Below, in pieces: positions 21,808 through 48,331 of a stretch of DNA of 64,000 bases; position 1 is the first letter of the stretch; every line of letters starts with the position of its first letter. The notes beneath the pieces were generated by a model. It did not search any database, was not told the DNA's origin, and worked only from the letters and a program-made list of their open reading frames with translations. A program made the position numbers and the translations under genes. Origin of the DNA: an uncultured Phycisphaerales bacterium (GTDB taxonomy: Bacteria > Planctomycetota > Phycisphaerae > Tepidisphaerales > Tepidisphaeraceae); contig CAWJPJ010000008.1 in NCBI GenBank assembly GCA_963844715.1, positions 864,001-928,000 of the forward strand, in the 5' to 3' direction.

Positions 21808-21848
21808 ACCGCTCCGGCAACTTTGCGTCGCCGGAGCGGTTTTGTTTT
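21808..21848 (+). terminator. Intrinsic terminator after integrase
   Basis: ACCGCTCCGGC-N11-GCCGGAGCGGT plus TTTGTTTT. Confidence 0.75.
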
Positions 21849-21994
21849 CTGCCGACGCTGGGGGTCCGTTCAGTCGTCAAGCCGTGCTGAAAGATGCCTC
21901 AGCCCGCAGGCGGATTCTGGCGATTGTTCTGCATGAAAAGGTGCGCAGCGAAGCGCTGGCCATCCGGCATGACGCCAACGGCAGCACGGTTCTC

Positions 21995-24452: not shown

Positions 24453-25278
24453 TCATTGGATTTGCGCGGTTACCTTAAGGGAAAGCGGGGGCAATCTAGG
24501 ATCATCGGTTGTTAAGACAGCTTGGCTGTCGAATCGCCCAAACTGGTTCAGAGGTCGGACGACGACTTGAACGTCAATCGTCCCAGTAGCCGGAATAGAA
24601 CTCGGCGGATCGGGGAGGCTTGTGCAGCCGCAGGATACATTTACCCCACGGACAGAGAGCTGCTGCCCATTGGGACTGCTCAAATGGAACAGCGCCGTCC
24701 ACGATCTGCCCGGCGGGATCGTCCCTAGGTTCGCAGCCCATTCGTATTTATTGACAGGCGTAGCGACGGCATCGGGACGAATCGCGGGCCCATGCGGTAT
24801 CGACACGTAGCGCGGAAGAGGACGTGGGGCGGCGAATATCAACGCGATTGTACCTAATACGATCGCAGTACCGGCCCCAAGGAAACGCCCGTGAAGATCT
24901 GCTCCCGATTGAAGGATCAAAACCGAGACAATCAAATAATCGAGTACAAAAGTCTTAACCGGTGAGATTTCCAGCGCCGAAACACCCGCATGAGGGTAGT
25001 CCCTGATGGAATTCAACCAGGGAGATGAAAGCAAAAACCGTGAAAAGAAGGATAGCGCTCCTTCTCGCCCACATGGCTGCAGCGCCGCTGGCCAGCCATA
25101 GGACCATGAGGACTTCAGCGCTGATTTGAGCGATGCGAGGCAGAGTCTCGCTCGAAAGTCGCCACATTTGATAAGCCTTGGCGGCGGCGGCAAAAAGAAG
25201 AATGAGCGCGATGAGGCGCGGAAACAACTGACGGCGTCGTGAATCAGCTCGGATTCGTTGTGCGGCGTCAAAAAGCAT
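24453..25278 (-). CDS. MauE/DoxX-like membrane domain fused to a DUF1573-like Ig domain (frameshift near 24970)
   Basis: TM helices with SCGCFG; C-terminal NLG.I..., SCGCT, IP..G...V.V, L.TDDP. Confidence 0.7.
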
Positions 25279-25284
25279 TTTGGA

Positions 25285-25935
25285 TTATGGTTGACCGTCA
25301 GGTCCCGTGGCGGGCAGGGGACCCATGAGAACGAGTTTCTCTCTTGCCCACTGAACCCACTGTGGGCGCGTGTCAACACAGACGAGCTTGCTCAGCAGCT
25401 CTCGAATCTTTGCGTCTTTGTCCCCTCGACGGAGGCGGGCCCGAGCGGCGTTGCCGACGAACTGCGGATTGTCCGGCTCGATCTTTAGGGCCTGGTCATA
25501 ATTGTCGATGGCATCGTCAAGTTTACCGGCGGCTTCAAGGGTAAGCCCCAGATTGCTTCTAGGCTCGGGTTGATACGGCATGAGTTTGGCTGCGTACTGG
25601 AACTCCCAAGCCGCTTGATACAAGTTGCCCACGTGAAGGTAGACGGTTCCGAGATTGTTGTGCGCCGGGCCGAAGGTTACGTCGGCGTCAAGCGCTTTGA
25701 CAAGAGTCGCCTGCGCCTCACTCCACTTGTTTTGATCGATGTCGCTAACCGCCTGGGCCGTCAGCTTGCGAGCCAGATCAGTATCTTTTTGGGGACCAAC
25801 AACGGATTCGTGAGGGGCGCCGGTCGCGCATCCTGCCAGGAGGATCGCCATTACAACCATGATCAGGAATGTTGTTGATAATCGTTGCGCCATAACATGG
25901 TTCACGAAAGGGTCATATTTTCCCGCCGGTTCCAC
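25285..25935 (-). CDS. TPR lipoprotein (PilF/pilotin-like)
   Basis: LAGC lipobox; AHNNLG and PRSNLG TPR repeats; end of T2SS operon. Confidence 0.75.
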   Translation of the reverse strand: MEPAGKYDPFVNHVMAQRLSTTFLIMVVMAILLAGCATGAPHESVVGPQKDTDLARKLTAQAVSDIDQNKWSEAQATLVKALDADVTFGPAHNNLGTVYLHVGNLYQAAWEFQYAAKLMPYQPEPRSNLGLTLEAAGKLDDAIDNYDQALKIEPDNPQFVGNAARARLRRGDKDAKIRELLSKLVCVDTRPQWVQWAREKLVLMGPLPATGPDGQP

Positions 25936-26455
25936 CCGGGCTTGTCATGGGGGAATAGATCATCGATGTGACGGTGATCTCCGCGCTCCACAAATCACCG
26001 GTCACCTGCTGCGGCGGGATGGAGAGGTGAATCGCTTTGATGCGCAAACCGCCGCGGTTATCGGATAAATTGCACAAAAGTTTGACCAACTGCGGCAGGG
26101 TAACTTCGCGTAATTGTACTGTCGTAGCCTGCTCCAGGTATGGCGATTCGGCCAGGCGCGTGGGCTGGTCCGGAGCGATGGAGGCGATGTCGTCTGGATT
26201 GATTCCCACGGATTCAGCCGACAACTGGACCCGCGCGGCAAGTTCTTCAATCGCTTTTTGACTGGTGTCCGCCATCGTCGGCTGGGTGCGGAGGGAGGTA
26301 ATTTGCGCTGCCAATTTGCGGCAGATTTGGGCGTCGCGAAGAGAATCCAATGCATCGCCTCTGGCACGTTCGTATGTGGCCCAGGCGAAAAGATTCGCGC
26401 CAAGCAGAATAGCCGCGGCCAGAGATAAGACAATTTTGAATTGCCGCTGATTCAT
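25913..26455 (-). CDS. T2SS GspM-like protein
   Basis: Single N-terminal TM, coiled coil, V.L..V.L.QL..LL ferredoxin-like tail; position after GspL. Confidence 0.6.
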   Translation of the reverse strand: MNQRQFKIVLSLAAAILLGANLFAWATYERARGDALDSLRDAQICRKLAAQITSLRTQPTMADTSQKAIEELAARVQLSAESVGINPDDIASIAPDQPTRLAESPYLEQATTVQLREVTLPQLVKLLCNLSDNRGGLRIKAIHLSIPPQQVTGDLWSAEITVTSMIYSPMTSPGGTGGKI

Positions 26456-27745
26456 CGGGCGCCCTCCGAGACGGCCGCTGAGATCGTGAAATTCACGTCT
26501 TCTCCCGGCGCCTGCTCCGTATGCGGCGGATCGACCCCCAGCGCAAGGCGCCGGCGCAGGGAAGTGGCGATTTGGTCCGCCGCGGCGTGATCGAGGGTCT
26601 GGCCCTCCAGGTAAAGTTGCTGAGGCTCCAGGCGCATCTCGACAACCCGGTAGCGCAAGCCCCGCGGCAACGCGGAAAGTACGTCGCGGAGCAGCGGCAG
26701 AACGGACTGAATCGCCTGCTGAGGAACCGAAGTATCGATATGACTGGCGGCGGCTAGGCGTCTTGCTTCGCTAACCAGACGCGACGTAATCGCGGCAGGG
26801 GGCGCGGTATTGGGCATGGCAATCAAATAGACCTGAACTTGCTGATCGTGCGCCGTCGACGCAAGGCGGTCATATTGAGCAGAGCGCCAGAAGAGGAAAA
26901 TTGTCAAACACAATACGAAGAACGCCGCGCCGCACGAAGCCGCGATCAGAGGAGTACGCACTCGGACGAGCGGCGTAGCGGTCGCGAGCGCTCCTTGGCG
27001 CAACTCAATCGACGGGATGTTTTGACCGTTCAAACATTTTGAAGCCGCCAGCGCGGCCATTTCCGACGGATTCGAGCAGGAATGCAATCGAAGGGCCAGA
27101 TCGGGTGGACGCAAATGCTCGGGTAGAGCGACGCCGATCGCGCGGAATGTCGCAACGCGCCCAGTTTCATGTAATGCATCTGTCGATCCAGGGCGTCCGC
27201 TTGAGGTGGCAAACATGTCCAGTCGCGGATCACGCTATTCTTCAAACAAACAAAATCGACATGGTTCTGTTGGAATATTAAAACAGCATCGGCATCTTCG
27301 CTGGCAAGGTATTGGGCGATAAGCAGCGCCGCCGGGCAAATGCTGGTGACGCTTATTCCGCGGGATTCCAGGGAATCGACGATTGCCGCAATCTTCTTCG
27401 TCTCGACGGCAACGCCCAAACAGACCTCAGCATCCTCGACGAAATCTGCGGTTAGTTCCTCGATTGCCAAAGGCAATTGTTCTTCGAGCCGAAACCCAAG
27501 AGCCGTTTCGCGCCCCCTACGGGGAAGACCCGCAGCACTTACCTTCGCCACAGGCAGTCCTCGGGAGGCAGAGCGAGCATGACCGCTTCATCTGTGAATT
27601 CAAGTTCTCGCAATTGCGATTCAATTTCGGCAATTGGCGCGTGCTCCTGACTCACCGTGACGGTGGCCAAGGTGACGGTCTCACCATCGATCCGCGCGAC
27701 CGACCAGTGTGTTAGCCCTGGGAAGATGACAAATTCTTTTTCCAT
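26452..27745 (-). CDS. T2SS GspL-like protein (frameshifted)
   Basis: LALP, F.LEEQLP..IEEL.ADF actin-like domain; IELRQG, TM, PilN-like L.LEG periplasmic domain. Confidence 0.7.
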
Positions 27746-28236
27746 CAGTTTGCAGCGTTCTGGTTTATTGTCTCCTTCACGACGGCCAGTTCCTGCGACT
27801 GGCCGTAGTAATCAACGCGAATACTTCCCTTTTCGATGTCGGTTATGCGCACCGCGCCAGCCAAGTCTCCCACGGCTTTAAGTTGAACAGAGCCGTCGGC
27901 AAGCTGGATCATCGCCCGCGAATAGCCCGGCTCAAAGATCGTCCCGGTGAGACGGATATCCAGAGGCGGGATCGCCTGCGCCAAGGGAGCGGGCGCCGGC
28001 GGCGCATCGTGAAGAGGTCGGCGCAAATCGAACTGCGCGAGCTTCTCCAGTTCGCGCGCATCGATGGGGCTCGTCGGGTTCGCCGTCGAGCCGGTTGCCG
28101 AGTTCCGGCGCAGGGCGGATTGGTCCACCGTCATGGGGAGCGGCACACAGGCGGCCCATGCGATTAGGACCACACCCCCGGCGGTGAATGCCACAGCCGC
28201 TGACCAGAGGATGTACTTAAGCCGTCTAATCCTCAC
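27745..28236 (-). CDS. T2SS GspC-like protein
   Basis: TM, Pro-rich linker, IRLTGTI.E...SRA.I, K.VGD HR-domain pattern. Confidence 0.6.
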   Translation of the reverse strand: MRIRRLKYILWSAAVAFTAGGVVLIAWAACVPLPMTVDQSALRRNSATGSTANPTSPIDARELEKLAQFDLRRPLHDAPPAPAPLAQAIPPLDIRLTGTIFEPGYSRAMIQLADGSVQLKAVGDLAGAVRITDIEKGSIRVDYYGQSQELAVVKETINQNAAN

Positions 28237-28246
28237 AAACAACACC

Positions 28247-29120
28247 TCACCACAAAAATTGATGCAATTGCCAGGCGCCATTTTCGCATTGGCCCACGAG
28301 CAGGGACCAGTCGCTTCGCCGCGCCGTGCGGCAGTTCACCCAGAGCGAATAGCAACTGGGGTGATCCGTCAGGACCGTCATCGCCGCGCTTTGTGTCTGG
28401 TCACTCAACTGCATTTGTTTAAAACAGTTCGCCAAAGTAATTCCGGGTTGCGCCGCTGGAGTTCGACAAGCTGATGGATTTGACCCAGATTCAAGATGCC
28501 CTGGCAAACTTCCTCCAGCACATCTTCGCTGGCTCGCTGAACGTTGACCCGCCCGTCGCCCCAGCAGGTTAGGATTTCGGCCGGAGCCGCGCTTGGGAAT
28601 CATCACAAAGCTGGGCGGGCTTGGAGTTTTCAAAGACATCCCCAAAGCTACGGGGCTGGGGGGGATTATTCGCATCGGGTTGCCAGCGAAAATACACGTT
28701 TCCCGCCAGGTCCGGGCTGGCCAAAGACAGCCGGCGGATCGTAAGCTCCGCTTCTTCCTTGCCCTGCTGCCTCAGAATCGTTCCCACGTTCGCCTTGGCC
28801 GATTCGTCGGAAAAGATGAGATGAAATCTCTGGCCGCCCATGTCGATCGCCGTGCGAAGAGACGAAACGGGCTGGCCGGTTTGGACCTCCCGGGCATGGA
28901 GCAGCGCTTCCGCTTTGGGGAGAAGAGTGACCTGGCAAGAGAGGGTTCCCCAATTGCGTTGAAGGTCCGCCTCCGCTTCGCCGGCAGCCTGGGCTTTTAA
29001 GATCGATGCGCGGGAGATCGCCACCATCGCCAAGGCCGCAATCATGAGGAGAACAAGAGTCACCAGGAGGACAAATCCTTGATGATGCTGTGAACCGCGA
29101 TGATACAAACGGTTTGTCAT
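28247..29120 (-). CDS. T2SS minor pseudopilin GspK-like (frameshifted)
   Basis: GFVLLVTL prepilin site lacking E5; DESAK.NV motif. Confidence 0.72.
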
Positions 29121-29681
29121 GGCAGACACACGATCTGGTCGATTTTGGATGCCGGGTCGTCGAAATTCACCTCCAGATGTACGCGACGACAGATAATGGG
29201 GACTCTTTTCGTGGACGTTGTTGACGATTCCAAAACTACAGGGCGAATCTCGCTCACATCGATCTTTTGGACTCCAAAAGCCACCAGATTTGTCGTTGGT
29301 TGGGGCAAAATGATCTCATCCAAATACTGCTGTCGCCGAACCAGACAATGCGCACCATCCGAGCCCGTGACTGAATAGGTAACCACGCTGGGCCGATCGA
29401 TCGGCCGGAGATTCGCATCAAGCGAATGGTCCGTTTGCAGGCTGAGGGATTGCCCGACCCCGCCGGAAAAAAAGCTGGCGCCTGCCAAGTCTTTGGAAAT
29501 TACCTGTACAATCTGCCGCGCGGTCGGCGCCGATACGGCCGTTCAAAGCAGCCAGACGAGATCGATCCCGCGCAATGGATGCGAAGACCGACAGCACGCC
29601 GCACATCAGGACCACGGCAATGGCCGATGCCACGGCGAGTTCCACGAGTGTGAAACCATTTCTATTTGCTGTCGCCTTCAA
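29117..29681 (-). CDS. T2SS minor pseudopilin GspJ-like (frameshift near 29490)
   Basis: RNGFTLVEL prepilin motif. Confidence 0.7.
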
Positions 29682-30121
29682 GGAATCTCCTTGGACGCGG
29701 GTGGCGCATCCACCACCACTTCAACCTTGGTCAGCGGTTGGGGCTTTAGGGCTAGACCACGGTCTTGTGCATCGAAGATTTCCAGTCTCATGATGCGAGC
29801 ATCCAATTCCGGGCAATTCCGCACAAAAATGGTTCGCCAGAGCAAATGTGCCTCCTTTAGTTCTCCGGTAGCGGGCCTCAGCGATGGCGCTGGACCACTC
29901 CACCAACTTGAGAGCAACGCGTCGGCCGCTTCGACGGCTGCCTGTTTTCGCTCGGCGCGCGACCACTGCTCAAGGTAGCGCGCTCGGGCGACGACGAGGG
30001 AAGCAAGTACGGTTCCCAGGATCGTCATGCCCGCGACGACTTCAATGAGCGTTCGCGCTCGCCTGCGTCTCAAGGCTCGGCGGCGCCAGCGAGCTAAAAA
30101 TGGACTCCAATTGCTTCTCAT
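29678..30121 (-). CDS. T2SS minor pseudopilin GspI-like
   Basis: Degenerate prepilin motif RA-RTLIEVV followed by TM. Confidence 0.6.
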   Translation of the reverse strand: MRSNWSPFLARWRRRALRRRRARTLIEVVAGMTILGTVLASLVVARARYLEQWSRAERKQAAVEAADALLSSWWSGPAPSLRPATGELKEAHLLWRTIFVRNCPELDARIMRLEIFDAQDRGLALKPQPLTKVEVVVDAPPASKEIP

Positions 30122-30570
30122 CGTCTGTCCAGAAAACTCGGCCGGAAAGGCCGGCAACCATCATCCAGCGATCGTCATCGCCATGCGGCAGGCGAATCGC
30201 ATAAGTCTGGCTAAATCCCTGCTGCGAGTAGGCGATATCCACTTGGCCGCTGTCCACCGCGGTTCCGTCGGGTGTGCGAAGTTTCAATTCCCATGCTTCC
30301 GGCAGGCGCGCCAAAACCGTCGCGCTGTCGGTGGATTGCTGCCAGAGGATTTCATTGTGATTGAGGTCAACGATCAAATGCTGAGTCGATCCGCTTTGCC
30401 GCGCAGGCCGAGCGCACTTGGGCGTCCGCAAAGGCCAGTTCTTTGCAGAGGGCGTCGAATTGGTGTTCCCGCGCGGTGGGAATGAGCGAAAGCACGCAGG
30501 CGGCGGCGAGTAATCCCATGATTGCCAATACCGCGCTCAATTCAATCAACGTGAAACCGGATTTTCTCAT
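30042..30570 (-). CDS. T2SS minor pseudopilin GspH-like (frameshift near 30400)
   Basis: MRKSGFTLIEL..VLAIMGLL. Confidence 0.7.
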
Positions 30571-30986
30571 GGCGCCGCCTTTGCCGTATCCGGCGCCGTG
30601 TCCAGATCGTCGCTGCTGATATTGTCCGCCCCCTCCTTGCCACTGGCCCCCAGACAGAGCACTTCGTACGGACCGTTGCGGCCAGGCGCGTTGTACTGAT
30701 ACGAATGCCCCCACGGATCGTTGTGAACCTGTTCGATGTATTTCGGAGCCAGTACCGCCAGCCCCTCATCGTTTGTCGGATAACGCCCGTTTTCTGCGTA
30801 GAAAGCTGCCAAGGCGCTCTTGAACGTACTCAAATCAGTGCGGGCGCGATTCTGCTTGGCTTTATCGAGGAAATGCCGCGTGCTCAGCGTCACCGCGCCG
30901 GCCAAAAGGCCGATGATCACGATGACGATCATGATCTCGATGAAGGTGAAAGCTCTTCGACCGATTATGCGATTAGCCGAGTACAT
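30567..30986 (-). CDS. gspG: T2SS major pseudopilin GspG
   Basis: AFTFIEIMIVIVIIGLLA, GRYPT.DEGL..L, DPWG..Y.Y..PG. Confidence 0.92.
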   Translation of the reverse strand: MYSANRIIGRRAFTFIEIMIVIVIIGLLAGAVTLSTRHFLDKAKQNRARTDLSTFKSALAAFYAENGRYPTNDEGLAVLAPKYIEQVHNDPWGHSYQYNAPGRNGPYEVLCLGASGKEGADNISSDDLDTAPDTAKAAP

Positions 30987-32178
30987 CGCCGGCCTCCAAA
31001 ATAGGGAGCATGGTCGCCAGGGCGATCGTCGCGACGATAGTGGCGAGCAAAAGAATCAAGACCGGCTCCAAAACGGAAGTGAGGCGTTGCGCCGCCGCCG
31101 CCACCTGATCGTCGTAATCTCTGGCCAGTCGTCCCAGCATCTCCTCCAGCCGGCCGGATTCCTGGCCAACGGAAAAGACCTGTACGACGAGTGGCGGGAA
31201 CGCCGCGGAGGCCCGCAGAGCGGGAGCGATGTCTCGGCCGGCCGAAACTGCCGCCTCGCATCGCGCCAGCGCGTCCTGGAGTACGACATTGCGGGTGCTC
31301 TTTCGAGCGACCTGTATCGCCCGCACAAAAACCACGCCGCTTTGGAGGAGGGTTTCCATGACCACAGCGATGCGGACCACCGCCGCCTTTTGGGCCAGGG
31401 TTCCGACCAATGGAAGACGCAAGATAAGAAAATCCCATCCCCATCTGCCCCTCCGAGTTTGCAGGAGGAATGTCCACATAACGGCCGCGGCGACGGCAAT
31501 CAAACCGACCAGCCATCCCCGACTCACCAGGAAATCACTCGCGCCCTTGACGATCCGCGTGGGTAATGGCAAGGGCCGCCCCTCATCGAGGAGCGGTTGC
31601 AGGATCGAAGGGACGACGTAGGTCATTAAAAAGATGCTCACGGCGACGGCGGTCAGGAGAACGATGCAGGGATACAACAAAGCCGTGCCGAGTTTGCCAC
31701 GGAGTTGCTCGCGGCGCTCCCGGAACTTCGCCAGACGATCCAGGGCAACATCCAATGTTCCGGTGTCTTCGCCTACTTCCACGAGATTCAGGGATAGCTC
31801 ATCAAAAATCGCCGGTTGACTGGCCATGGCCGCCGCCAAACTGCTGCCAGCCGATACGCGATCGCGCACAAGCAGTATGCTCGACCGAAATGAGCCGCGG
31901 TATTGGTTGGCGATGGTTTGAAGGGCTTCGGTCAACGGCGCTCCAACTCCCAACAACGTCGAGAGTTCCCTGGCGAAGGAAGTGACTTTGTGACTTTCGC
32001 GATTGCGTCCTGCAAATCGGCGGACTTTGGCCGTGCGAACAGGGGAGAGGCGTTCAATGGTCAATCCGCGTTGGCGGAGAATGTCCCGCGCCTGCCTTGG
32101 CGTGTCGGCGGAGAGCGTACCGCTCAGATTGCCAGAAACGGTTGAGGGGTCAAAAGCTTTGTAGGCAAACACGGCCAC
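30973..32178 (-). CDS. gspF: T2SS inner membrane platform GspF
   Basis: F.Y.A, F.RELSTLL..G.PL, VGE.TG.L, LYP, GQESGRL..ML, LEP. Confidence 0.93.
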   Translation of the reverse strand: MAVFAYKAFDPSTVSGNLSGTLSADTPRQARDILRQRGLTIERLSPVRTAKVRRFAGRNRESHKVTSFARELSTLLGVGAPLTEALQTIANQYRGSFRSSILLVRDRVSAGSSLAAAMASQPAIFDELSLNLVEVGEDTGTLDVALDRLAKFRERREQLRGKLGTALLYPCIVLLTAVAVSIFLMTYVVPSILQPLLDEGRPLPLPTRIVKGASDFLVSRGWLVGLIAVAAAVMWTFLLQTRRGRWGWDFLILRLPLVGTLAQKAAVVRIAVVMETLLQSGVVFVRAIQVARKSTRNVVLQDALARCEAAVSAGRDIAPALRASAAFPPLVVQVFSVGQESGRLEEMLGRLARDYDDQVAAAAQRLTSVLEPVLILLLATIVATIALATMLPILEAGDVLG

Positions 32179-32188
32179 GTTTATTTCT

Positions 32189-33847
32189 CTAGATGTCGAG
32201 GGCCTGACTGTCAGTTGTGCGCATCGTTACGCGTTCCACTTCGTCGATCGTTGTGACGCCAGCCACAATTTTGCCGATACCATCGTCGCGGAAGCTGCGC
32301 ATGCCCGAGGATTGTGCTGCGGCTTTAAGCTCGCTCGCCGCGGCGCGATTCTGAATCTGCCGGCGAATCGATTCATCGACCATCATTAGCTCAAAAATAC
32401 CGACGCGCCCGCGATAGCCTGTATCTCGGCATTTGCCACATCCCTTGCCTCCGCGAAGCTCGACGCTTTCGTCCTCGGAGTTGAGCCAAGCTGTTTCGTC
32501 CGGTGCGGGACAATGCGACTCCGAGCAAGCGGGACAAATCCGTCGCACCAGTCGTTGGGCTAATACTCCGGCGACAGAACTTGCGACCAGATACGGTTCC
32601 ACGCCCAAATCCAATAGTCGCATGACGGCACTGGCGGCGTCATTCGTATGTAGTGTCGAAAAGACCAGGTGACCCGTCAGCGCCGATTGGATTGCCATGG
32701 AGGCCGTTTCGCGATCGCGGATCTCGCCGACCATGATGATATCCGGGTCCTGCGCAGTACGCTCCGCAGGCCGGAAGCAAAGGTCATCCCCTTCTTGTCA
32801 GTAACCTGGGTTTGGCTGATCCCTTCAAGTTGATACTCGATCGGATCTTCCAGCGTCAGCACGTTGTGCCGCCGGAAATCCATTTCCTTAAGGGCCGCGT
32901 ACAACGTCGTCGTTTTGCCTGAACCTGTCGGGCCGGTGACCAATACTAGTCCATGATCCAGCCCAATCAGTTGCCGAAAGCGCGACAGGGTTGAACCGCC
33001 CATGCCGAGTTCGCCCAACTGGTACAGGCGAGTCGCTCTTGTCCAGTAATCGGATGACCACGCGCTCACCATGACTTGTGGGAAGTGACGCAAGGCGCAG
33101 GTCAATGGCGCGATCCCCAACTTGTGCGGTCGCCCGTCCGTCCTGGGCAAGCCGCTTCTCGGCGATGTTCATGCGCCCCATCACTTTTAGGCGCCCGACT
33201 ACTTCCTCCTGAAGGTGCTTGGGAAGCTCAAAGGCGTCAAACAGTACGCCATCGAGACGAAGGCGAACGGCCAGCGTCGTCTCAGTGGGCTGGATGTGAA
33301 CATCCGATGCGCCGCTTTGGACGGCCTCAAAAAGTATCAGGTTCACAAGTTTCACGACCGGAGCGCGTCCGCCGCTGTCCAATAAATCTTCCCGGCCGGT
33401 CAGTTGCTCCAGTTCCTGAAGCACGCTGGCCCGATCCAGATGCTCGATCATTTGCCGGGCTTGCCCGCTGCGCTCTTGATAAGCCAAGTTGATTGCTGAT
33501 TGAACCGCAGGGGAGGTGCAAATATCGGCGTTACATCGCGGCCGAGAAAGCGGGCGATGATATCGATCTGTTGCCAGCAATCGACATTGCTGATCGCTAG
33601 GACAAATGATTCGTCGGGTCCGACCAGTCCCATCAGGCCATGCTGTGCGCGCGAAGGCGATCGGTATGCGGCCGACGAACTCCGCGGACGTTGGGAATTC
33701 AGAAAGGCTCTCCAGATACCGCACACCCAGTTCTGAGGCGGTAGTTTTCAGATCTGGACGCGCCAGTGGTTCCGCCGGTGCCCCCAGTTCCAAGTGAATC
33801 GGGCGATGCTTTGAGGCTTTGGAACTCAATCGTTCCACGATCGACAT
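32189..33847 (-). CDS. gspE: T2SS ATPase GspE (frameshifted)
   Basis: [61 protein letters not shown], tetra-Cys motif. Confidence 0.93.
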
Positions 33848-33858
33848 AATCGCCCCTC

Positions 33859-36601: not shown

Positions 36602-38291
36602 ATGAAATTCGCAGAAAAGCGCCTCCTTCTTGTCGTTTTGCATTTGACGACGATGTCTTCGATGGCCGGACTAGCCAGCGGCCAAACGACATCGCCCTCC
36701 AACGGCCCAACGACTTTGCCCTCCGCACCAGTTCTTGCACAAATGCCCGCGAACTGGCAGCAGCTTTCTGTCACGAATCTGATGCCGGTGGTTCAGGCGT
36801 ACTATAAGGCAAACGGGCACTTGACGATCGCGCAGTGCAGTGCGCGGAGGTTGCGCAATCGGTGTGGAGTCAATATTTAAGCACTGACCAAGAATTCCAG
36901 CAGGCATGGGCCACCGATCAAGATAGTCTGACCGTGATTGTCAGTTATGTGGCCAAGGATCTTCCTCCAGCCTCGGTATCTGCGTTGGCGACCAGATTCA
37001 CCGGTATCGCCGCGAATTCGAGCGCAATTGCGCCGCTTAAATTCCGCTATGTAAAACATTTGTTTCTTGCGCTATCGAGCCTTGCGCCGACCCCTCGGTC
37101 GGACAGCAGATGGAAACCGGATGGATTGGTGCATGGTCCCAACAGCAGTCACTGTCAGCGAATAACATTGGACATATGGGACAGGCGATACTAAGCGATA
37201 CGGCACCGGAGACTGCGGCTGCCCGCAGCGCGATAGTAACGTTGGCTTGGAGTAATTTTCTGAGCAACACGACATTTGTGTTAACTGCGAAATTTTCCGA
37301 CGTCATGCGGTTAGTAGCGGTGTTTGGAAGCCAACTGAGCGCAACACAACAACAACAATTGATTGCACCAATCCTTCAAAGATGCTCCAGCTCGACGCCT
37401 GATTTAGCACTTGTGTCAATTCAGCACATGAATGCAACGGTAGTCGCCCCTCTACGATCGATTGGTGCTACGGACGTTCAACTTGCCTCTTTGATTGCAG
37501 CTTGGGCCGTTGCGCGGGACCAGAGAACCGCCTACACGGTGGATGACGGAGGGCCGGTGAGGCAAACTGTCAGTTTTAATTCATTTGGCAAGGGGTCGAC
37601 GGCTCAAGCCGCCTTTTTTGCAGCAATTGCGGCACAGGTTCAGGCTGACGGCGGAATGATTGGCCCCAATACTGCGTATCTACTTTCATTTTGCGCGACC
37701 GCAAGCAATCAGCTTCCGGCGTGGATGTCACAGTTAAATTCGCAACTCCAGGCGACCAACGTGGCTGGAGACAGCGAGGCACTATTGCTCTTGTCCCAAG
37801 CCGACGCAATTGATCCAGTGGGAAACTCGTTGGCCGTCAATGCCGCGGCTCAGCAGGCGCTGCAGCAAGCTTTGGCCAGCGCCCAGTCACCAAAGGTACA
37901 AGTCGCGTGCTGCGAAGGCCTGGTGCACAGACTGGTGATGGCGAAGAACTACACGCAGGCACAGAGTTACTTGACGTCATTGCAGGCTCAGCTGACTGAT
38001 CCGTCCGCCCTGGCGAACGTCAACACGTTGACTGCATTCGTTGCGGAGTCAGCTGCGCGTGACGCGAATCAAGCTGCGCAGCAAGCTCAATTGGCTGCCC
38101 TAGGTGCGGCGCATGGCCCGACTCTCCGCCTGCAAGGTCGGCTTGCGTACTTACAGTCGAAACTGGCCGCCGCCCAAGCGCAACAGGCTCCCTCAGCGGA
38201 AATCCAAGCATTGTCAGCTTCGATTGCTAACATCCAAGAACAACTTGCAGCGTTGCCGGTCATACCACCCACGACGAGCCCATCTCAGTGA
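36602..38291 (+). CDS. Secreted alpha-helical hypothetical protein A (frameshifted)
   Basis: Signal peptide; Ala/Gln-rich; paralogous to 39375-40975. Confidence 0.65.
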
Positions 38292-38355
38292 GGAGAAACT
38301 GCGGAAAGCGGATCAAATGCCGACAGGACATGGTCTCCATCGCGAGCAAAAGCGT

Positions 38356-39286
38356 ATGAGAAGAAAATTTCCATATTCCAACGTCGTTTTCCTAATGGCG
38401 ATTTTCGCAGTAGCGCGCTCTGTTTTGGCGGTACCATTTTTGGTGGTGGATTTCAGCGTCAATGGCTCGCGCGGAGGCTCTGCGGGAGAAACCATCGGTT
38501 GGCAATTGTGCAAATCGGACTTACAGAAAGGCAATGGTTCGCACGAAACAACGACTTTCAGTAATGACCAGATCAAGCGCGTCTTCGGTGGCAACACTCC
38601 GTTGTCGAAAAGCGTAGCGCCTACGGGTCGGTTGGCATTCGCGCTAACTTCGGTAGACCTCTCGTTCCTAAATGGGCAGCCGACGATCTTAAACGATGGC
38701 GCGAGTATTAGATTTAGCGACCGCGGATCAATGGATTCCGGTGGCAAGGTGGGAGCATTGTACCATTCTTTCATAGTCGCGACCGCTGGGTCGGCAATGA
38801 TTGATGGCCAGGACCCGGGCCTAATAGTCGCCGACGACGGTGCAAATCACCGAATGCTCATCCAAATTTCTGGCCTAAAGGCGAATAGCAGTTACGTGTT
38901 TACGTTTTATGCCTACGACGAAGCCGCGCGGCAGAGCGTTTGTGTGTTTACGAATGTGACTGGGGATCCGTTACGTCACCTCAATGCTGCGGACGCGTCC
39001 GCAAATAGAAATTACAAAGTTGGAATGCCCAATGTATCTGTCCTATTCAACCCTGGACTCGGTGAACATGACGACGGCACTCAGTATGCGCACAGATGGC
39101 CAATACGTGTGGGTTAACGGTGCCGCGCCGACGACCACGGAACAATACGCGGTTTCACTCGCAGCAAACAGCGACGCCACTGGGAAAGTAATCTTTGCAG
39201 AGACGACGGTGGTAGGGCTGTACGGCCGCTACCAACCATGTCCGGTCCTTAACAGAATTGAGATCGACGCTGGCGCAGCGAACTGA
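38356..39286 (+). CDS. Secreted beta-rich hypothetical protein (frameshift near 39030)
   Basis: Signal peptide ..SVLA; ISGLKANSSYVFTFYAYD, SDATGKVIF, VLNRIEI beta-sandwich-like pattern. Confidence 0.6.
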
Positions 39287-39374
39287 CCGAAGTTACATGC
39301 CGCCGCAGGGCGGACTCTGCGTACGAACTAGCCTCGATGCGTGAATGGCGACACGGTATGGCTGGAGGTGAAAT

Positions 39375-40975
39375 ATGCCAATTTCAAAGCATTCCCTGTC
39401 GCTGGCAGTAGTGATCTTTGGAGCGAGCGTTACGGTGCGAGCAGCCGATATCTCTTCTGCCGACGCATTACCGAAGGACTGGCAGCAGTTACCAATTTCG
39501 CAGCTTGATCGAATCGTACGTGAATTCGATTTTCAAAACCCGGGGCGGCAGAACATTGTCCGACGCGAAGAGCGCAGCAACGTTGATCGCCAACCGATAT
39601 TTTTCGGATGCTCAGACTCTAGAAGCCACCCTAGCACAAGACCGTTATGGCGCGTTGTTGCTATCGGCGGATTTGGTGCCGGATTTGCCGATCGACGTGG
39701 CATACGGACTGGGAGACATGCTTCTCGCCGCCACGGCAGACCAAAATGCCATAAAATCTGTGAGTTTTTCGGAACTCAATAGTGTATACGACACATGTAG
39801 ATTTTTGAGAAAGTCGCAAGGCGGCTTGGGGGATGTTGCTGCGTTGTGGGTGAATTCTTCGGGCCAATGGAAAACCCTAGGAACAGCGGAGCTCTTAGAC
39901 CTCGGCGAAATGATATACCTGGTCAATGATCCGAAGGTCGAAAACGCGAAAAGTCTGATTCTTGCCAAGGCGTGGAGCGAATCGCTTGGGAAAGTGTCTT
40001 TTTATGCGATCGCCGACAACACAACGTTGATCCGATCGATGAGGATATTTGGAATTCAACTCGACGCCGCCGCACGCGAGTTTGTCGTGCGGAATGCGGT
40101 CGGTCGGTTTCAAAACAACGATGAATTGCTATCGGCGATTACGACTCCACAGATGATCCACTTGGTTGCCGCTTTGCGTCGAATCGGGGCTACCGACGAC
40201 GAAACCGCGACGACGTTAGCTGGTTGGGCTCGGGCGAGGGACGCACGTCCCCTTTATAGCGTCGATGAGTTCGATCCCGCACGGAGATATGAAAGCTTCT
40301 CGGAAATGTTTGAGGGGGCAGATCGACCGGTGGATTTTGCGAAAAAAGTCAGAAGCTATTTGTTTGTTGATTCGAATATTCTGGGCCCGACATGCGCCAG
40401 AGTTCTTGGCTACGTCTCGACAACGATCGGTGATTTACCCCAATGGCGCGAAACATTGGAAGCGCGATCTTAGGTCGCCTCAGCTTGCCGGAGATGAGCG
40501 CGCGAATCTGCTCTTGGCAAAGGCCGAAGCGGACGAAATCACCAATCCAGTAAGTCTGGATTCTGACGGGAAGGAGCTGGCGCTAGCCGCGTTCTCGACG
40601 GCCCAAAGCGATCGCATGCGGTTCGCAGCAATTTATTGGCTCACCCATCGCTATACCCTGGCCGGACGTGATGCCGACGCACGAGCGTGCGTTGAAAATG
40701 CGTTTTTGGAAATTCATGATCGATCGTATTTGCATCAACTGCAAGTGCTAAACGAGCAAATGGCGACTCTATCCGACATGTTGGGCAGAGCGAGACAACA
40801 TTTGGCAGACAAAGCAAAGATACGCTTGCAAGGCGAGTTGGAATTCCTTCAAAATGAACTGGTGTCGGCAGCAAAACGATGGTCGTCCCAGTGTCGAAAT
40901 CTCGACTTTAAAAGCACAAATTCAGAATTTGCAGCAGCGTATCGTTATGCAAATGCCGTAGACGTTAAGAGCTTA
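39375..40975 (+). CDS. Secreted alpha-helical hypothetical protein B, paralog of A (frameshifted; 3' end approximate)
   Basis: GGAGG RBS, signal peptide ..VRA; shared motifs P..WQQL, W..ARD.R..Y.VD, AGD..A.LLL..A.A, RLQG.L..LQ. Confidence 0.65.
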
Positions 40976-41009
40976 GTAGGAACATTGGAACAATGTACTG
41001 GGGTTGAAT

Positions 41010-44000
41010 ATGCGCCACGCTCATGATGACTTGACTGGTTCAAATCATTCTTGCCGGCGTTCTCCGGCCATCGGTGTTGTATTGGCATGGGTCTGCTTTG
41101 TTACTGCTTCTACGGCGCCCTTCTTGCAAAGTCGCGCGATTGCAGCAGCCGGCGGCGGGCCTGAGTGGTCGCCCTGCGAGCCGGCCATTAGTTCCTATCC
41201 GCCATTCGGATGGTGGGGCCCGGGTGGTGGGAATTGTGGGAACGGGTGCTGCGTGGGGAGTGGCGGCGGGGGGGGTGGCGGGGCCGGTGGCGGCACTGCG
41301 GGGCCTTTGTCGGCGAATCCGATCAAATACTCATCTGGGCAAATAATCCTGACTCGCGATGACATTCCCAGTCCATTTGGGGGACCCTTTGGACTGTCGA
41401 TGACCTATGACAATCAAGGCACCGATAGCCCATATCGAAGTGACCCTCATTTAATCACCTACCAAGGCCCATGCGGAGCGGATTGGTATCCGAGCTCATT
41501 TCCGACGATTGCGCGCGATAGCGGTGACATTGGGCTTGACGGCTCAACCGTGTGGTACCGGCAGCATTACTGCGTCGAGGTGCACGCGAATCAGGGCGTC
41601 CTACTGATGCCAAATCCCATGCGCCGTGCAGTCGCCTTCTGGAATTTGGTTCAACATGTGGACGCCAAAGCTCGCTCTTCCGGGAGTACAGATTTCAGTC
41701 GACTGGGACGAGCCGCATTCCCAAATCGTCTACAAGGAGGTAACCCCGGAGAAAACGACAGTTTGGAAATTCAACGATTTTCAGCAACCATCAAATCCGA
41801 AGGGGACCTTCTTATCCTATTCCGATTCCACGGGGATCTCGTACTCAGTCGCGAGTTACAACTACGGGATCCCCCAGGAGCTGATCGCAAGCTATACGAG
41901 CCCCGATGGCTCGAAAACGATCTACTATTCGCTGTACTTCACCATGACCACCGATGGAACGATGCGCGTGGCGAACATTACCCTCAGTTCCTCGCCTGAC
42001 ACGAGCACGTGGACGCCGATCAGGTCGGTGAACTATTCCTATTATAAGGATGGAGATACGACCCACGGAATGCAGCAAGATTTGGAATACGCCACGATTT
42101 GCGACGGATTGAATCGTCCGATCGATACCTACTACTATCGTTATTACACGTCCGGAGCGTATTTAGGGTATGGCACCGGTCCTGGATATGTGGGCTCCAT
42201 AAAGTTTGTGTTGAATCCTCGTTCGTACGCCCGTCTCGTCGCCGCTTACCCAAGTACAAATATCGACACATTGTCGGATACCACGGTTCAGCAATACGCA
42301 GACATGTATTTCTCCTACGACAATCAAGCTCGGGTCGTACAGGAACAAGTGCAGGGAACCAGTTGTTCGTGCGGCGGTGGCAGCAGCGAGATCGGAATCT
42401 TCAACTACACCTACACGATCAACACAAACTCGGGTTATTCGGATGGATACAACACGTGGAAATATAAGACCGTCGAGACTCTTCCCGACAACGCAACCGC
42501 GAATACGCTTTACTTCAATTATCAAGGCCAACTGATGTTGAAGGTGTTTTCGTCAGGGGGCCAGAATTGGGCCACCTATAACCAATATGACAGCAACGGA
42601 AATCTGATAATGGAAGCTGAGCCCTCGGCGGTGGTAGACCCAACGAAATCCCCGTACAGCGACACATACGATGCGCACTTTGATCTGCTCGACAAGCAGA
42701 CCAGCGGTGCTTACCAGTATCTCAATCAGAATTCGGGCCTAATTCACATTTATGATTACTGCACCTCCACCACACCATCTGCGGGTCCGACGACACCGGG
42801 CACTGTGCTCGGCTATCTCGAAGATGAACAGGTGCAGCAGGGGCAGCAAGGGTCGCCCATTGAGGTTCGAAGCCAGTTGTACTTTGCGCACCCCTCGGAC
42901 TTGGCGACTGCCAACGACGGCCAAGGGCCGCCGGCCTATCCAATCGCCAGTAAAACCGAATATAACAGTGCCTCACCAAGTGGGAGCGGCGGTCAGGTGA
43001 CTACCTATTGGTACACGTGGCAAACGCTGGGCGGTTTGAATACCACTATGCCGGCCACCAGGAGCACCACGAGGCCCACAATTTCATCGGCCGAAAACGG
43101 TCCCGGCACGAGCGACATTTCAACAGAAGTCTACGATACGAATGGCTTAGTCGAATGGACCCAAGACCCCGACGGGCATCTGAATTTCCTTGCGCACGAC
43201 CTTGGAACGCGAGCCGTAGTCACGCAAATCATCGACGTAAACACCAGCAGCGGAACTCAGCCCAGCGACTATGTTGCGCCGCCGACATCGCTAGGATGGA
43301 GCACGTCCAGCGGACTGAATCTGGTTACATCAATGACTGTGGATGGTCTGGGAAGAACTACAAGCATTACGGATCCAAACGAAAACACGACGTACACAGT
43401 TTATAACGACTACCAGCAGAACGACGGAACTGTCTACGAAGTGCGCAATTATCCTGGCTGGAGCAGCGGTCAGACTACCGGGCCCGTGCGAGTCCAGAAG
43501 GAAATTCGTCCGACCAGTTATGCATCCACTTACAACAACACAGCGGTGCTTCTTGAATCTTTAACCATGGCGCCGTCAAGCCCTACCACGAGTGGCGGCA
43601 TACCTACCGGACAAGAGGGAATATCAAACGTGCAGGCGCTTTTGCGCCAAATCATGGATCAATACGCCAACAGGCCTGTTTACGCGGATCAATACTACAG
43701 TTTTGCCAGCGGCGGAAGCACGCTTTCATACAGTACGTCACCGACAATCGGCGTACAGGACACAAACTACTATCGTACTAGCTACTATTACGACGCTCTC
43801 GGCAGGCGCTATAAGAGCGTCAGCGATTCGGGCACGATAACAAATCGCGCGATTGATCCTATGGGGCGCACGACGAGCATTTGGATCGGCACCAACGACT
43901 CAGGCTGGACTGAGGCGAGTGGCAACAGCGGTTCATCAAACATGACGATGGTTTCGTCCAGCCAGTATGACGGGGGCGGCGTCGGCGACAGTACGCTCAC

Positions 44001-47000
44001 CCAAATTACAAACTATGTCGACTCGACTTCCTCCGACAATCGAGTCACTCAAAACTGGTACGATTGGCGAGATCGCCTGGTTGGGAGCAAGCTTGGCGTC
44101 GCGTCGAGCGAATCCGACGGAACTCATCGGCCGATCACGTTTAATGTACTGGACAATCTCGGTCGGATTATCGAACGCGATCGCTATGATGGAGACGGGT
44201 GGACTCCAACCGTTTCCAGTGGTGCGGTGAGCATCCCGTCGGGAGATACTGGAAATCTCCGCAGTAAAGTCGTCGTTGCCCACGATGATCAGAATAGGGT
44301 ATATCAGACAGAACAGTACAGTGTCGATCAATCGAGCGGAGCCGTTTCCTCGACGGCGCTGGTGTCAAATGTGTTCTACGACCACCGCGGGAACCTCATC
44401 GAGACGTCCAATCCAGGTGGGCTGGTTACCAAGTCGGTCTTTGACGGCGCGGGTCGCATCATCCGAGGGTATAAAACCGACGGAGGAAGCGGGTCCGGGT
44501 GGTCTAACGCATCGGTTGTCAGCGGGGACAATATTCTGGAGGAAAAGCTCAGCCAGTACGACGGGGATGGGAACGTCCTCTTGGCAACGACCGAACAGCA
44601 CTTCCACAACGACACCAATACGGGTGAGCTTGGCAATATAACAACAACGCCGCTTGCGCGCATTAGCTACGTCGCGAACTATTACGACGCAGCCAATCGT
44701 CTTATCGACAGTGCCAACATCGGTACCAACGGCGGCAGCGCTTACACATATTCATCTTCGATCCCGGCGCGATCGAACACGGTGCTTGTGACTACTTACG
44801 CCTTCAATGCCGCGGGCTGGACCTCGACGGTAACTGATCCACGCGGAATTAAGACGGCCAATGTCTACGACAACATGGGCAGGGTAACGCAGAAAGTCGA
44901 AAACTACGACGGCACCACTTCTCTGCCTCTATCGGCGTCGTCTGTGGGCACGTCCGGCAACCGCGCCACGAACTGGACGTATGACCAGCTTGGGCACGTT
45001 CTGACGATAACGGCGGTCATGCCGACGGGGACCAACAGCCAGACCACGCAGTATAACTACGACGTGACTACCACCGGCGGGAGTACGATTAATTCCAATG
45101 ACCTTCTGGCTTCGGTGCAGTACCCGGACACCAGCACCGGAAGCGCCGGTTCCGGATCTACAAATTCGCAGACCTTCACATACAACGCCCAGGGTCAGCA
45201 GCTGACCTTTACGGACCAGAACGGATCAGTACACACGTACTCCTATGACCTCCTGGGCAGAAGGACAGTGGATTCGGTCGGGACCCTTGGAAGCGGGGTG
45301 GACGGCAGTATCGTTGCCCAAACGATGAGCTACGATACCGGCGGCAGGCCGTATCAGTTGACCAGCTATTCCAATATCGACCTGGCCAGTTCCCACATCG
45401 TGAACCAGGTGGAGGACGTGTATAATGGCCTCGGTCAATTGACCAATGAATACCAGGAGCACGGCGGGGCTGTAAACACCTCTTCCAGCTTGCAGGTTAA
45501 GTATGCCTGGAACCTCATGTCCAGTGGCGCCAACAACAGCCGGCTAAACACAGTGACCTATCCAAATGGTCGGGTACTTCATTACTACTGCGGTCTTCAC
45601 GCCACTGGACAACGCGATCAGCCGGGTGGATTTGCTTTCGGATGACGATGGGTCAGGCGGGATCGGCACCGGCCTGGAGCAATACAGTTACCTGGGCTTA
45701 AACACGATTGCCGAGCGGGATCATTACGAGATTGGGGTGGGTCTTACGTATATCAGCCAGACTGGAAGCACAGGAGATGCGGGGGACCCGTACATTGGGC
45801 TGGACCGGTTCGGAAGAGTGGTGGATCAAAACTGGTGGTACAACAACGAGGGGACCACATATAGCACGGACCGGTTCCAGTACGGGTATGACCCGGGCGG
45901 AAACGCGCGTTTTCAAAAATAACACGGTCGTTTCCGCATTGAGCGAATTGTATCACCAGAACAGCTCCTCGAGCGGTGATGATGCAACCGCGTACGACAG
46001 TATCAACCGGCTGGTTGGGTTTGCGAGGGGTGCGCTGTCGGCGTCGAGTCACAACGGCGGGGTTCTGGACACGGTAGCGTCGCCGTCGACTTCTTCGAAA
46101 TGGAACTTGGACACCCTGGGAAACTGGGTGGGCGATGGTTCGTCTTCCACGAGCACGACGATCGCTGGGGTGAAACTGAATCGAGGCTACAACTGCAAAA
46201 ATGAATTAACAGCCGCCCAGAGCGCCACTCTGGCTTTCGATAATAATGGCAATACGACAGCGGATCAGAATGGCAACACCTACGTCTACGATGTCTGGAA
46301 CCGATGCGTAATCGTGAAGAACTCCGGCGGGACAACCATCGCAAGTTACAGTTACGATCCGCACGGTTGGCGAGTGGCGGAATCTCACGGGTCAACCACA
46401 ACGAATTGCTATTTCTCCAAGGACTGGCAGGTGCTGGAGGAGAGACAGGGCACGACCGTTGAGGACCAATATGTTTGGAGCCTCGCTTACGTCGATGGCC
46501 TCGTGCTAAGAGATGACCAGTTCACGGGCGGCGGTTATCGGCGGCTCTACGTTCAGCAGGACGCCAACTGGAACGTTACCGCGGTCACGGACGACAACGC
46601 GACGATGCTCGAACGGTTTGTGTACGACCCGTACGGAAATGTCACGGTGCTTAACGCTGCGGGTACGAGCGCGGTGACAGATGCGTATGATTGGATGTAC
46701 CTCCATCAAGGAGGTCGCCTTGACCCCGTGACAGGATTGTACAACTTCGACCACCGGGATTACGGTCCGGGGCTGGGCCGATGGTATGAGCAGGATCCCA
46801 TTGGCTGCATCGCCATGATGACTGCGGTTACAGATGCGTATAGGTGGCAGTACCTTCATCAGGGGGCAAGGCTGGATGCAGCGACGAACAACTACATCTT
46901 CCGGCACCGGGATGTTTTACCAATGCTCGGGAGATGGGCGGAGCAGGAGCCGTTCGGGGCGAAGTACGTTGACGGGATGAACCTTTATCTATTTGAAAGT

Positions 47001-47258
47001 AGCAATCCCGCCACGAAACTTGATCCTTTGGGGCTTTACGATATCAACGACTGCGAGCACGACTGCGACCAAGTTGCGAAAAAACTACCCCAAGGTATGC
47101 GGGCGGCGTATCTGAATGGTTGCTACAAATGCTGTGGCGAAGCCGGCACCTCGAAGGAGATGCAGGATTGTGCAAAAAAACCGCACTGCGATGGGGGTGT
47201 CGGAATTGAGCCCCCACCCGAACCCCCGGAGATGGCGGCACCCGGTGCGGCACGATGA
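41010..47258 (+). CDS. Giant RHS/YD-repeat protein with signal peptide and short Cys-rich C-terminal tip (about 3 frameshifts)
   Basis: Many YD repeats; WQVLEER, QDANWNVT, ERFVYDPYG, YLHQGGR, MNLY...NPATKLDPLGL core terminus. Confidence 0.9.
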
Positions 47259-47302
47259 ACTGACAACTCGGTACGATACTTGGCCTATTTGCAGGAGCCG
47301 AT

Positions 47303-47981
47303 ATGTCCATTGGATTCGCAGTACGCGTGAAGCCCAAGAAACGGATGGATCGCATTTTTGTAGGAATCGACCCGTTGCTGAAGAGGTGCGGCATCTGCGC
47401 ATTAGGAGCGATGGCAGCGTTTAGCGTCGCGTCCTGCTGTGGCCATCACGACCTTATCGGCGCAAACAGCGGCTCCAGAACTCAAGAACGCGATATGGCG
47501 ATGAGTCCCATTGCCCAAGCCGCAGCACAAGGCGACACGGCACGCGTCAAGAGGTTGTTGGACGAAGGGGACAAGTTGAGCGATCAAACGTTTGGCGCAA
47601 AATGACGCTGCTCTCCGCGGCGGCGAGTGGTGGCCATGTCGAAACCGTTTCTTATTTGCTTGGGTTGGGTTTAAATCCAAATATTCCGGACCGGACTGGA
47701 TCGACGGCGTTGCATTTCGCCGTGCTCGCGGACTCGCCTGAGACGGTTAATGTATTGTTGCGCACGGCGCGAATCCTAACGCGCCAAATTTGGACGGAGA
47801 TACATCGCTCCACTCCGCCGCGGTTGCGGGGAGTCTTATTGAAGCACGGATGCTTCTCGCGCACGGTGCTGACCCGCACGTAAAGGATCTGCAAGGTGAG
47901 ACTGCCGCTGATACCGCAAAGAGGGAGGGTCACCCGGAAGTGGCTGACTATATCGCACGCGCTATGGAACGTGGGGGGTAA
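47303..47981 (+). CDS. Ankyrin-repeat lipoprotein, candidate immunity protein (frameshifted)
   Basis: AGGAG RBS; VASC lipobox; TALHFAV, TSLHSAA, GADP...D..GET ankyrin repeats; directly after the RHS tip. Confidence 0.8.
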
Positions 47982-47984
47982 TCG

Positions 47985-48331
47985 ATTGGCGGCAAAGCTC
48001 GACGACGACGGACCTTTACTACTCCAATCAATGGCAAGTGTTGGAAGAGCGGCAGGGTTCAACGAGTACCGCAACCGTTTTGGACCTATACATCTCGAGC
48101 ATTGCCTACGTGGATGGGCTGGTTCTCCGTGACAGCGGCTCCGGCCTGGGTACTCGGATCTATGCGCTGCAAGATGCCGATTGGAATACGACAGGGCTGA
48201 TTGACACCAACGCCAATATGTTAGAGCGGTTTGTCTACGATCCATATGGGAAAAAGACCGTCCTCAATGCGGCTGGGACCAGCATAGTAGCGGATGCCTA
48301 CAACTGGCCGTATTTGGTGAGCGCTATCTGA
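47985..48331 (+). pseudogene. Orphan RHS core fragment
   Basis: YYSNQWQVLEERQG..AYVDGLVLRD..QDADWN..MLERFVYDPYG..TVLNAAGTS..DAY.W.YL then stop; no tip. Confidence 0.8.

Follow-up and report, generated by a model that had tools for sequence, protein, structure and literature searches.

By which route would a giant RHS toxin that opens with a signal peptide cross the outer membrane, a step that in two-membrane bacteria has so far been assumed? The question is raised by a 64,000-nucleotide stretch of DNA (the window: NCBI GenBank assembly GCA_963844715.1, contig CAWJPJ010000008.1, positions 864,001 to 928,000 of the forward strand) from an uncultured Phycisphaerales bacterium, in which a 36-kb island at tRNA-Met holds a type II secretion system (T2SS) operon and, head-to-head with it, an RHS gene with its accessory genes. 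Our answer, to which we give a probability of about 0.65, is that the RHS protein is a polymorphic toxin that would be exported by Sec, fold in the periplasm and then be secreted by the T2SS encoded beside it. We infer this last step, export through the linked T2SS, from comparative genomics that support it well.

The T2SS operon and the RHS side of the locus

The operon runs leftward from 36186 in the order gspDEFGHIJKCLM, followed by genes for a tetratricopeptide repeat (TPR) lipoprotein and a MauE-DUF1573 protein, and the RHS side runs rightward from 36602.

33859..36186, minus strand: gspD secretin, 775 residues, accessory Planctomycetota clade
30973..33847, minus strand: gspE (in three frames) and gspF
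28290..30986, minus strand: pseudopilin genes gspG, H, I, J and K (J and K by position and conservation; end of K approximate)
25913..28281, minus strand: gspC, gspL (several frames) and a gspM-like gene (M by position only)
25285..25935, minus strand: TPR lipoprotein, PilW/Tgl-like, candidate pilotin, conserved across the operon clade
24453..25278, minus strand: MauE-like membrane domain and DUF1573 Ig domain, in two frames; a recurring accessory gene
36602..38291, plus strand: protein A, with signal peptide, helical repeats and a conserved TPR-like C-terminal domain
38356..39286, plus strand: protein B, with signal peptide
39375..40900, plus strand: protein C, paralogue of A, end approximate
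41010..47258, plus strand: RHS protein, ~2,080 residues, with signal peptide, Cys/Gly-rich stretch, YD shell, core motif and variable tip
46671..46885, plus strand: in-frame duplication in the RHS core, 153-nt spacing
47034..47258, plus strand: C-terminal tip, 74 residues, 7 Cys
47303..47960, plus strand: ankyrin-repeat protein with a lipobox-like N-terminus, end approximate
47948..48331, plus strand: orphan RHS core fragment that ends before any tip

The leftward operon described in the initial annotation is borne out, with gspJ, gspK and gspM resting on position and conservation. Family matches are firm for gspD to gspG: GspD contains PF00263, four copies of PF03958 and the GspD N0 domain PF21305, and its best NCBIfam match, TIGR02517, scores 302.5 bits, below the cut-off of 351, while GspE, GspF and GspG are the top NCBIfam matches for their respective open reading frames (ORFs), GspG (TIGR01710, 102.5 bits, cut-off 88.85) scoring above its cut-off. 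The gspH and gspI products have weak matches and an N-methyl motif, gspC and gspL also match weakly, and gspJ, gspK and gspM, which have no family match, were placed through their position and the gene order conserved in related operons. The MauE part scores just E 0.063 at the window locus, and clear MauE-DUF1573 fusions occur at related loci; MauE assists disulfide-rich proteins. Among the operon ORFs there is no PilT-type and no PilMNOP gene of a type IVa pilus, and the lone ATPase is best matched by GspE. A promoter scan of the divergent gap returned 2 weak sites versus 0.6 expected, an uninformative result. The locus had also been called self-contained, which does not hold for the prepilin peptidase, a single gene outside the island (C5:35938), nor for Sec and disulfide formation, which have to be supplied by the host.

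On the rightward side, the expected set of three signal-peptide genes, an RHS gene of ~2,080 codons, an ankyrin lipoprotein gene and an orphan piece is present. The RHS gene amounts to 2,083 codons across four frames, corresponding to an estimated cargo mass of ~220 kDa, and its product matches PF05593 (YD repeats) and TIGR03696 (RHS-associated core, 73.8 bits). Hydrophobic N-terminal segments are found in A, B, C and RHS, with best 11-residue Kyte-Doolittle windows of 2.25, 3.07, 2.35 and 2.81, respectively. The duplication in the core is likely the scar of a tip exchange, and the orphan piece and main RHS core share 62% identity. The tip belongs to no family, has no relative in the protein collection searched and gave no alignment with a similar-looking tip, and the ankyrin lipoprotein is a candidate periplasmic immunity protein.

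Recurrence of the T2SS-RHS pairing

Recurrent synteny between T2SS and RHS genes had been set beforehand as the test of the pairing, and such synteny was found widely and in several gene orders. The genome, metagenome and class sets compared here overlap in part, contain some near-duplicates and include kin that are not independent. An RHS gene is present at 21 of 80 genome loci (17 of the 52 whose upstream flank is 9 kb or longer), at 17 of 80 metagenome loci (14 of the 21 that have 5 kb or more upstream) and at 0 of 20 loci of other secretins from the same class, the Phycisphaerae. Across 301 genomes of the class, this RHS family occurs in 46, a GspD of the clade described below in 73, and both in 26 (odds ratio 5.8); clade GspD is thus found in 26 of 46 RHS-positive versus 47 of 255 other genomes, the 46 including one row, positive for RHS and negative for GspD, from the unpublished genome G004, which enters no other result. 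The GspD and RHS genes lie within 15 kb on one contig in 15 of the 26 double-positive genomes (8 families).

The arrangement varies. RHS may face gspD head-to-head, or it may follow the TPR gene of the operon (L076, L256, L306), and at other loci (L147, L152, L156, L158, L163, L178, L179, L181) the TPR gene is relocated directly before RHS, while MauE-DUF1573 stands at the head of the gsp operon at some loci and at the head of the RHS side at one other. Genome G619, a single contig, carries two A-RHS arrays, with ~7 and 3 orphan modules, around one T2SS. In another class of the phylum, a signal-peptide RHS gene and a more distant T2SS operon are convergent (L316, G281:C30).

The secretin clade and its other partners

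By its sequence, the window secretin belongs to a patchy accessory clade of Planctomycetota, detected (E <=1e-60) in 25 of 401 genomes of the phylum and 73 of 301 of the class, with members also in Pirellulaceae. When 82 secretin domains were placed in a quick maximum-likelihood tree, six housekeeping secretins fell outside the clade (Shimodaira-Hasegawa-like approximate likelihood ratio test 100). The three earliest groups within it, 11 rows, are all RHS-linked, and the groups linked to TonB and DUF1800 genes are nested. Since the root of this tree lies on a long outgroup branch, RHS as the first partner is likely only; we read RHS as the commonest and probably the oldest partner of this T2SS clade. 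Giant secretins with open frames of 4,000-5,000 residues and many repeated N domains were also seen (G032:C1, G027:C1, G034:C3, G036:C2, G039:C13).

The 35 full-flank loci without RHS comprise 8 with a TonB receptor, 6 with DUF1800/DUF1501, 1 with DUF4331 and 20 others. In three separate branches the clade T2SS lies beside pairs of DUF1800 (often with CHRD) and DUF1501 genes (L061/L062, L063, L141, L142, L149, L165-L169, L300, L308), a hint that such pairs encode T2SS cargo, and a TonB-dependent receptor adjoins a well-supported branch of the clade (L053, L111-L113, L116, L122, L124-L126), with DUF3450 confirmed in L053. At L236:2-6190, a 2,000-residue LEPR-XLL-like protein is encoded head-to-head with a clade gspD. 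The clade T2SS and the family of protein A also stand beside whole non-RHS exoproteins of 1,800-1,950 residues (L109, L129, L134). The description of the T2SS as dedicated is weakened by these DUF1800/DUF1501, TonB-receptor and other giant exoprotein neighbours, as well as by signal-peptide RHS cassettes in genomes in which no such T2SS was found.

One explanation for the linkage is that the gene sets are merely co-resident on islands, with the RHS protein leaving through a housekeeping T2SS, in vesicles or by lysis, while the linked T2SS handles other substrates. Solo A-RHS cassettes do exist, other secretins are present in 41 of 41 relatives searched, GC differs between the two halves here (57.7% versus 53-55%), and the window RHS shell falls with LEPR-type shells in a mid-shell tree, all of which would suit such co-residence. 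What makes it improbable is that, from family to family and class to class, the two sides are again found divergently adjacent or co-directional and sharing TPR and MauE genes, that RHS linkage marks the early branches of the secretin clade, and that distances between GspD proteins correlate with those between RHS proteins (rho 0.52, 23 pairs), a correlation that host kinship could also produce.

If export by the linked T2SS is correct, the clade may have arisen as an interbacterial weapon that exported 200-300 kDa RHS cocoons assembled in the periplasm, with disulfide-rich envelope-active tips and a new family of TPR-like periplasmic adaptors, and may later have been re-used for other giant exoproteins. 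We offer this origin, taken as a whole, tentatively, at a little under even odds.

Export route and toxin character

A signal-like N-terminal segment is found in 24 of the 27 linked RHS proteins with a closed 5' end (two more linked rows are open-ended) compared with 5 of 17 unlinked ones, in line with the signal peptide expected on RHS. Seven of the 17 unlinked proteins open with a LEPR-XLL-like motif, NF012209 being passed by 1 of 4 tested, and 2 of the 7 genomes concerned hold clade GspD elsewhere. The same shell family is fused behind LEPR-XLL-like N-termini at L021, L024, L025 and L184-L187, export modules thus being exchanged on shells.

The N-terminal shell of the RHS protein at L091 matches Rhs structures (E 8e-10, low TM-scores). 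Cys content is 5.1% in ten linked tips versus 0.37% in six shells, and at L039:5330-13754 (G030) and L103:86-8895 the shell is split at the same junction into two genes, each with a signal peptide, which points to assembly in the periplasm; the two halves at L103 are separated by a helical accessory gene. Together, the Cys-rich tips and split shells suggest folding and assembly in the periplasm, a condition for export by a T2SS, which acts on folded substrates (PMC6882859; this and the other papers cited below are drawn on in excerpt).

It is also conceivable that the T2SS exports a part only, the shell remaining as a periplasmic folding capsule and the released tip, or A, B and C, being the substrates. 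The RhsA cocoon measures 86 x 65 Å (PMC8765631) and the shells here are longer, which raises a question of size for the secretin gate that partial export would ease; the tips are small and disulfide-rich, and RHS cores self-cleave (PMC8765631). Yet the clade T2SS and the A family also accompany the whole exoproteins described above, and known cleaved tips remain in the shell until delivery (PMC8765631), so that we consider export of a part unlikely.

PAAR (PF05488), VgrG (PF05954) and TssC (PF05943) were not found in the source genome (G000, 85% complete), nor VgrG and TssC in G619, G030 and G192, three of four single-contig linked genomes, and no Tc family, including the partners TcA/TcB, was found among the island ORFs scanned. 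The lack of PAAR, VgrG and Tc genes in the initial annotation thus held in both the genome search and the island scan, and delivery by a type VI secretion system (T6SS) or Tc complex was rejected.

Most of the 20 linked tips are unrelated. A Pfam cut-off is passed by three of them (phospholipase A2, DUF6973 and HINT), and three match weakly. Of 18 downstream positions read by eye, 12 encode a hydrophobic or lipoprotein start, 3 look cytoplasmic and 3 are unclear. As judged from these genes, the tips and exported downstream proteins fit toxins that would act mostly on the envelope, with no need to enter the target cytoplasm. Variable tips, a downstream candidate immunity gene and orphan modules, the features by which RHS polymorphic toxins are recognized, are found across the linked loci. 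A role other than toxicity would make the RHS protein, exported by the T2SS or beside its pilus, an adhesin, a recognition protein or a filament regulator similar to Bd0109 of Bdellovibrio, a signal-peptide RHS protein linked to pilus genes (PMC3818213). The tips are for the most part unnamed and rich in Cys, many A-linked cargos have a post-cleavage Cys and are possibly lipid-anchored (by eye), and exoproteins that do not look toxic share the module; such a role nonetheless has little in its favour beside the phospholipase A2 and HINT-borne tips, the tip-specific downstream genes, the orphan arrays of up to ~7 modules, the exchange scar in the core and the lack of a PilT-type gene in the operon.

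Proposed mechanism and points against it

In the preferred reading, secretion of the whole RHS toxin by the linked T2SS, the protein would cross the inner membrane via Sec, as its signal peptide suggests. The YD shell and disulfide-rich ends would then fold in the periplasm, possibly aided by the helical A and C proteins and MauE-DUF1573, and the product would exit through the neighbouring GspD secretin, powered by GspE and the pseudopilus. The swappable tip would most likely attack the envelope of neighbouring cells, while the adjacent lipoprotein may shield the producer in its periplasm. The T2SS clade would in this way be a cargo-coupled exporter of very large proteins, and the system would move on islands, depending on the host for Sec and prepilin peptidase and, here, on a helper element for transfer.

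Several points weigh against this scheme. Secretion, binding and killing are inferred from genes alone, and signal peptides were judged by a hydrophobicity rule rather than by SignalP. The genomes are related, and the linkage counts therefore overstate independence; no RHS gene lies near 35 of the 52 full-flank loci, and A plus signal-peptide RHS cassettes occur without clade GspD in G032, G670, G180 and G237 (a 4-contig genome). The estimated cargo of ~220 kDa exceeds the T2SS substrate SslE, 165 kDa (PMC8881592). The first position of the core protease motif is Glu in the window RHS and Asp in the other 19 matched cores, which suggests that the window protein may not self-cleave; the final DPxG is kept, and the upstream duplicated copy of the motif has Asp. 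Toxicity is assumed for the 14 of 20 linked tips, the window tip included, that match no informative family. Finally, G226 encodes VgrG and TssC, with a T6SS ~30 kb from its T2SS-RHS locus (G226:C1:908804-947273).

Proteins A, B and C

Proteins A and C are paralogues (29% identity), and B has no relative in the protein collection searched. The C-terminal domain of A and C, ~200 residues, defines a family of 744 clusters at 50% identity, with no Pfam or NCBIfam match in the members tested. In A its fold, predicted with confidence, is a TPR-like solenoid that includes a long helical hairpin (predicted local distance difference test 90), and fold searches gave generic TPR or helical matches only (no Foldseek match with E <0.001; best Z 10.8; Atlas <0.9). 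Of 301 class genomes, 21 encode the family and 17 of these also have clade GspD; the family's genes directly precede RHS or another signal-peptide exoprotein, for example a 1,949-residue FG-GAP/PKD protein in L134. These neighbourhoods identify A and C as an unnamed helical family tied to large exported cargos, which may act as a periplasmic chaperone or adaptor. A complex prediction for the A C-terminal domain with the 475 N-terminal residues of RHS (L091) scored 0.00, which is evidence in neither direction.

Cargos behind an A gene often have a Cys right after an A-x-A cleavage site (by eye), representing an odd lipobox or an N-terminal disulfide (L123, L174, L175, L177, L182, L218, L220, L223, L224, L227, L241, L246, L272, L282, L285); this Cys is absent from the window RHS and L091. 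At L218, L220, L224 and L227, the A gene precedes signal-peptide proteins of 600-1,000 residues that have no Pfam match, some with an N-x-D-D-D motif, and these are possibly another cargo class. A second unnamed helical accessory family of ~270-290 residues, not found in the window, recurs between gspD and RHS (L136:8896-9693, L099, L102, L103, L172, L222, L241, L281).

The island and the quality of its assembly

At tRNA-Met at least three islands lie in tandem, of which this is the second, and a related integrase opens each unit.

20374..20436, plus strand: left att repeat, the 3' part of tRNA-Met (by repeat comparison)
20496-20515: arm-type repeat near the left att
20567..21784, plus strand: tyrosine integrase, intact, with two paralogues behind other att copies
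21800..23960, plus strand: conjugation-module remnant, with a traG piece, a DUF2811 gene and a TrbB/VirB11-like ATPase
48791..56296, plus strand: AbiEi/AbiEii pair, with abiEii split by IS21- and IS66-type elements
56343-56362: arm-type repeat near the right att
56468..56530, plus strand: right att repeat, with the integrase of the next island behind it

The att-bounded island proposed initially was recovered, its two repeats being copies of the 3' part of tRNA-Met (at C8:804424) that are 97% identical over 63 nt. The att sites and integrase expected of an integrative and conjugative element are found in it, whereas complete mating-pair and relaxase genes are not inside it. The claim that the system is transferable therefore stands with respect to integration and falls short with respect to conjugation, for which the island offers only the traG piece and trbB-like gene; a self-conjugating element was rejected on the same ground. 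Both neighbouring islands contain trb genes, and transfer would require these. In these neighbours (window positions 1-20373 and 56531-64000), the trb copies are inverted and 88-90% identical (8177-9876 / 60293-62027), and AbiE and RES-type pairs and metabolic cargo are also present. Neither the RHS nor this type of GspD was found in two congeneric draft genomes, which are 90% and 95% complete. Elsewhere in the source genome, 24 tRNA genes are packed into ~3.5 kb (G000:C6:952626-956065).

The frameshifts in the window are largely assembly errors, with a few real lesions possible. At least 25 frameshifts were counted in 71 kb elsewhere in the assembly (20 of 59 genes common to relatives), and contigs from four soil runs of one study, possibly the source of the assembly, which cover part of the breaks, show single-base differences at those in gspE, A, C, RHS and the ankyrin gene. 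On these two grounds, general decay of the island was rejected as their cause. The same contigs span the RHS core duplication, and an assembly artefact was accordingly rejected for that feature.

Comparison with known systems

T2SSs are mainly known for the export of enzymes and virulence factors. If our reading is correct, they would gain a role in bacterial competition and join the dedicated routes of polymorphic-toxin delivery, the known size of T2SS cargo would rise, with a test of the secretin's limit for folded proteins, and Phycisphaerae without a T6SS would have a competition system. The locus family supplies the machine, its partners and a cultured carrier (L091, Fontivita pretiosa), which makes the question testable by one deletion. 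With it come a periplasmic family that has no name as yet and many Cys-rich candidate toxin domains that lack annotation. No description of gsp-RHS linkage was found in the open-access papers searched; secretion, Rhs and toxin are not mentioned in PMC11266412, nor planctomycetes in PMC6668835. The individual parts are already known, the dedicated pairing of T2SS and RHS appears undescribed, and the partner family is new.

The T6SS Rhs effectors RhsA, Tse5 and Tse15 share with this system the YD cocoon, the PxxxxDPxG core, tip/immunity pairs and orphan modules (PMC8765631), but here PAAR, VgrG and sheath genes are replaced by a signal peptide, the shells are longer, the tips are disulfide-rich and the downstream proteins are mostly exported. 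The Gram-positive WapA is likewise a Sec-exported YD toxin with DUF6531, a core motif, a variable tip and upstream helper genes (PMC12704120), though its hosts, bounded by a single membrane, rely on wall-binding domains or a sortase, whereas the system here faces an outer membrane and has a secretin T2SS; the window RHS has no match to a wall-binding domain, and its host encodes secretins.

Additional T2SSs with a specific, large or linked substrate are exemplified by Txc-CbpE of Pseudomonas PA7 (PMC8623646) and SslE of E. coli (PMC8881592), whose substrates are chitin-binding or mucin-active rather than polymorphic toxins with immunity genes, and the excerpts of these papers mention no A-like partner. 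The giant genes of Omnitrophota (10.1101/2023.11.21.568195) and Bd0109 (PMC3818213) also place large or RHS-type exported proteins beside type IV filament machinery, but, in the excerpts used, lack tip/immunity polymorphism with a full gsp operon, and Bd0109 is tied to pilus control.

The closest likeness is to the signal-peptide "T2SS/Sec" toxins of Zhang et al. 2012 (PMC3482391), described there as the commonest polymorphic-toxin route and assigned by default, with no neighbourhood signature in the excerpted text. Given that class, the premise that RHS toxins in diderms are mainly T6SS or Tc cargo was too narrow. Its members have a signal peptide, RHS repeats, a variable tip and ankyrin immunity, as here, and Imm-ank is listed for planctomycetes (PMC3482391). 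Whereas that class is recognized by a signal peptide alone, the neighbourhood here is marked by a specific gsp clade and by accessory families.

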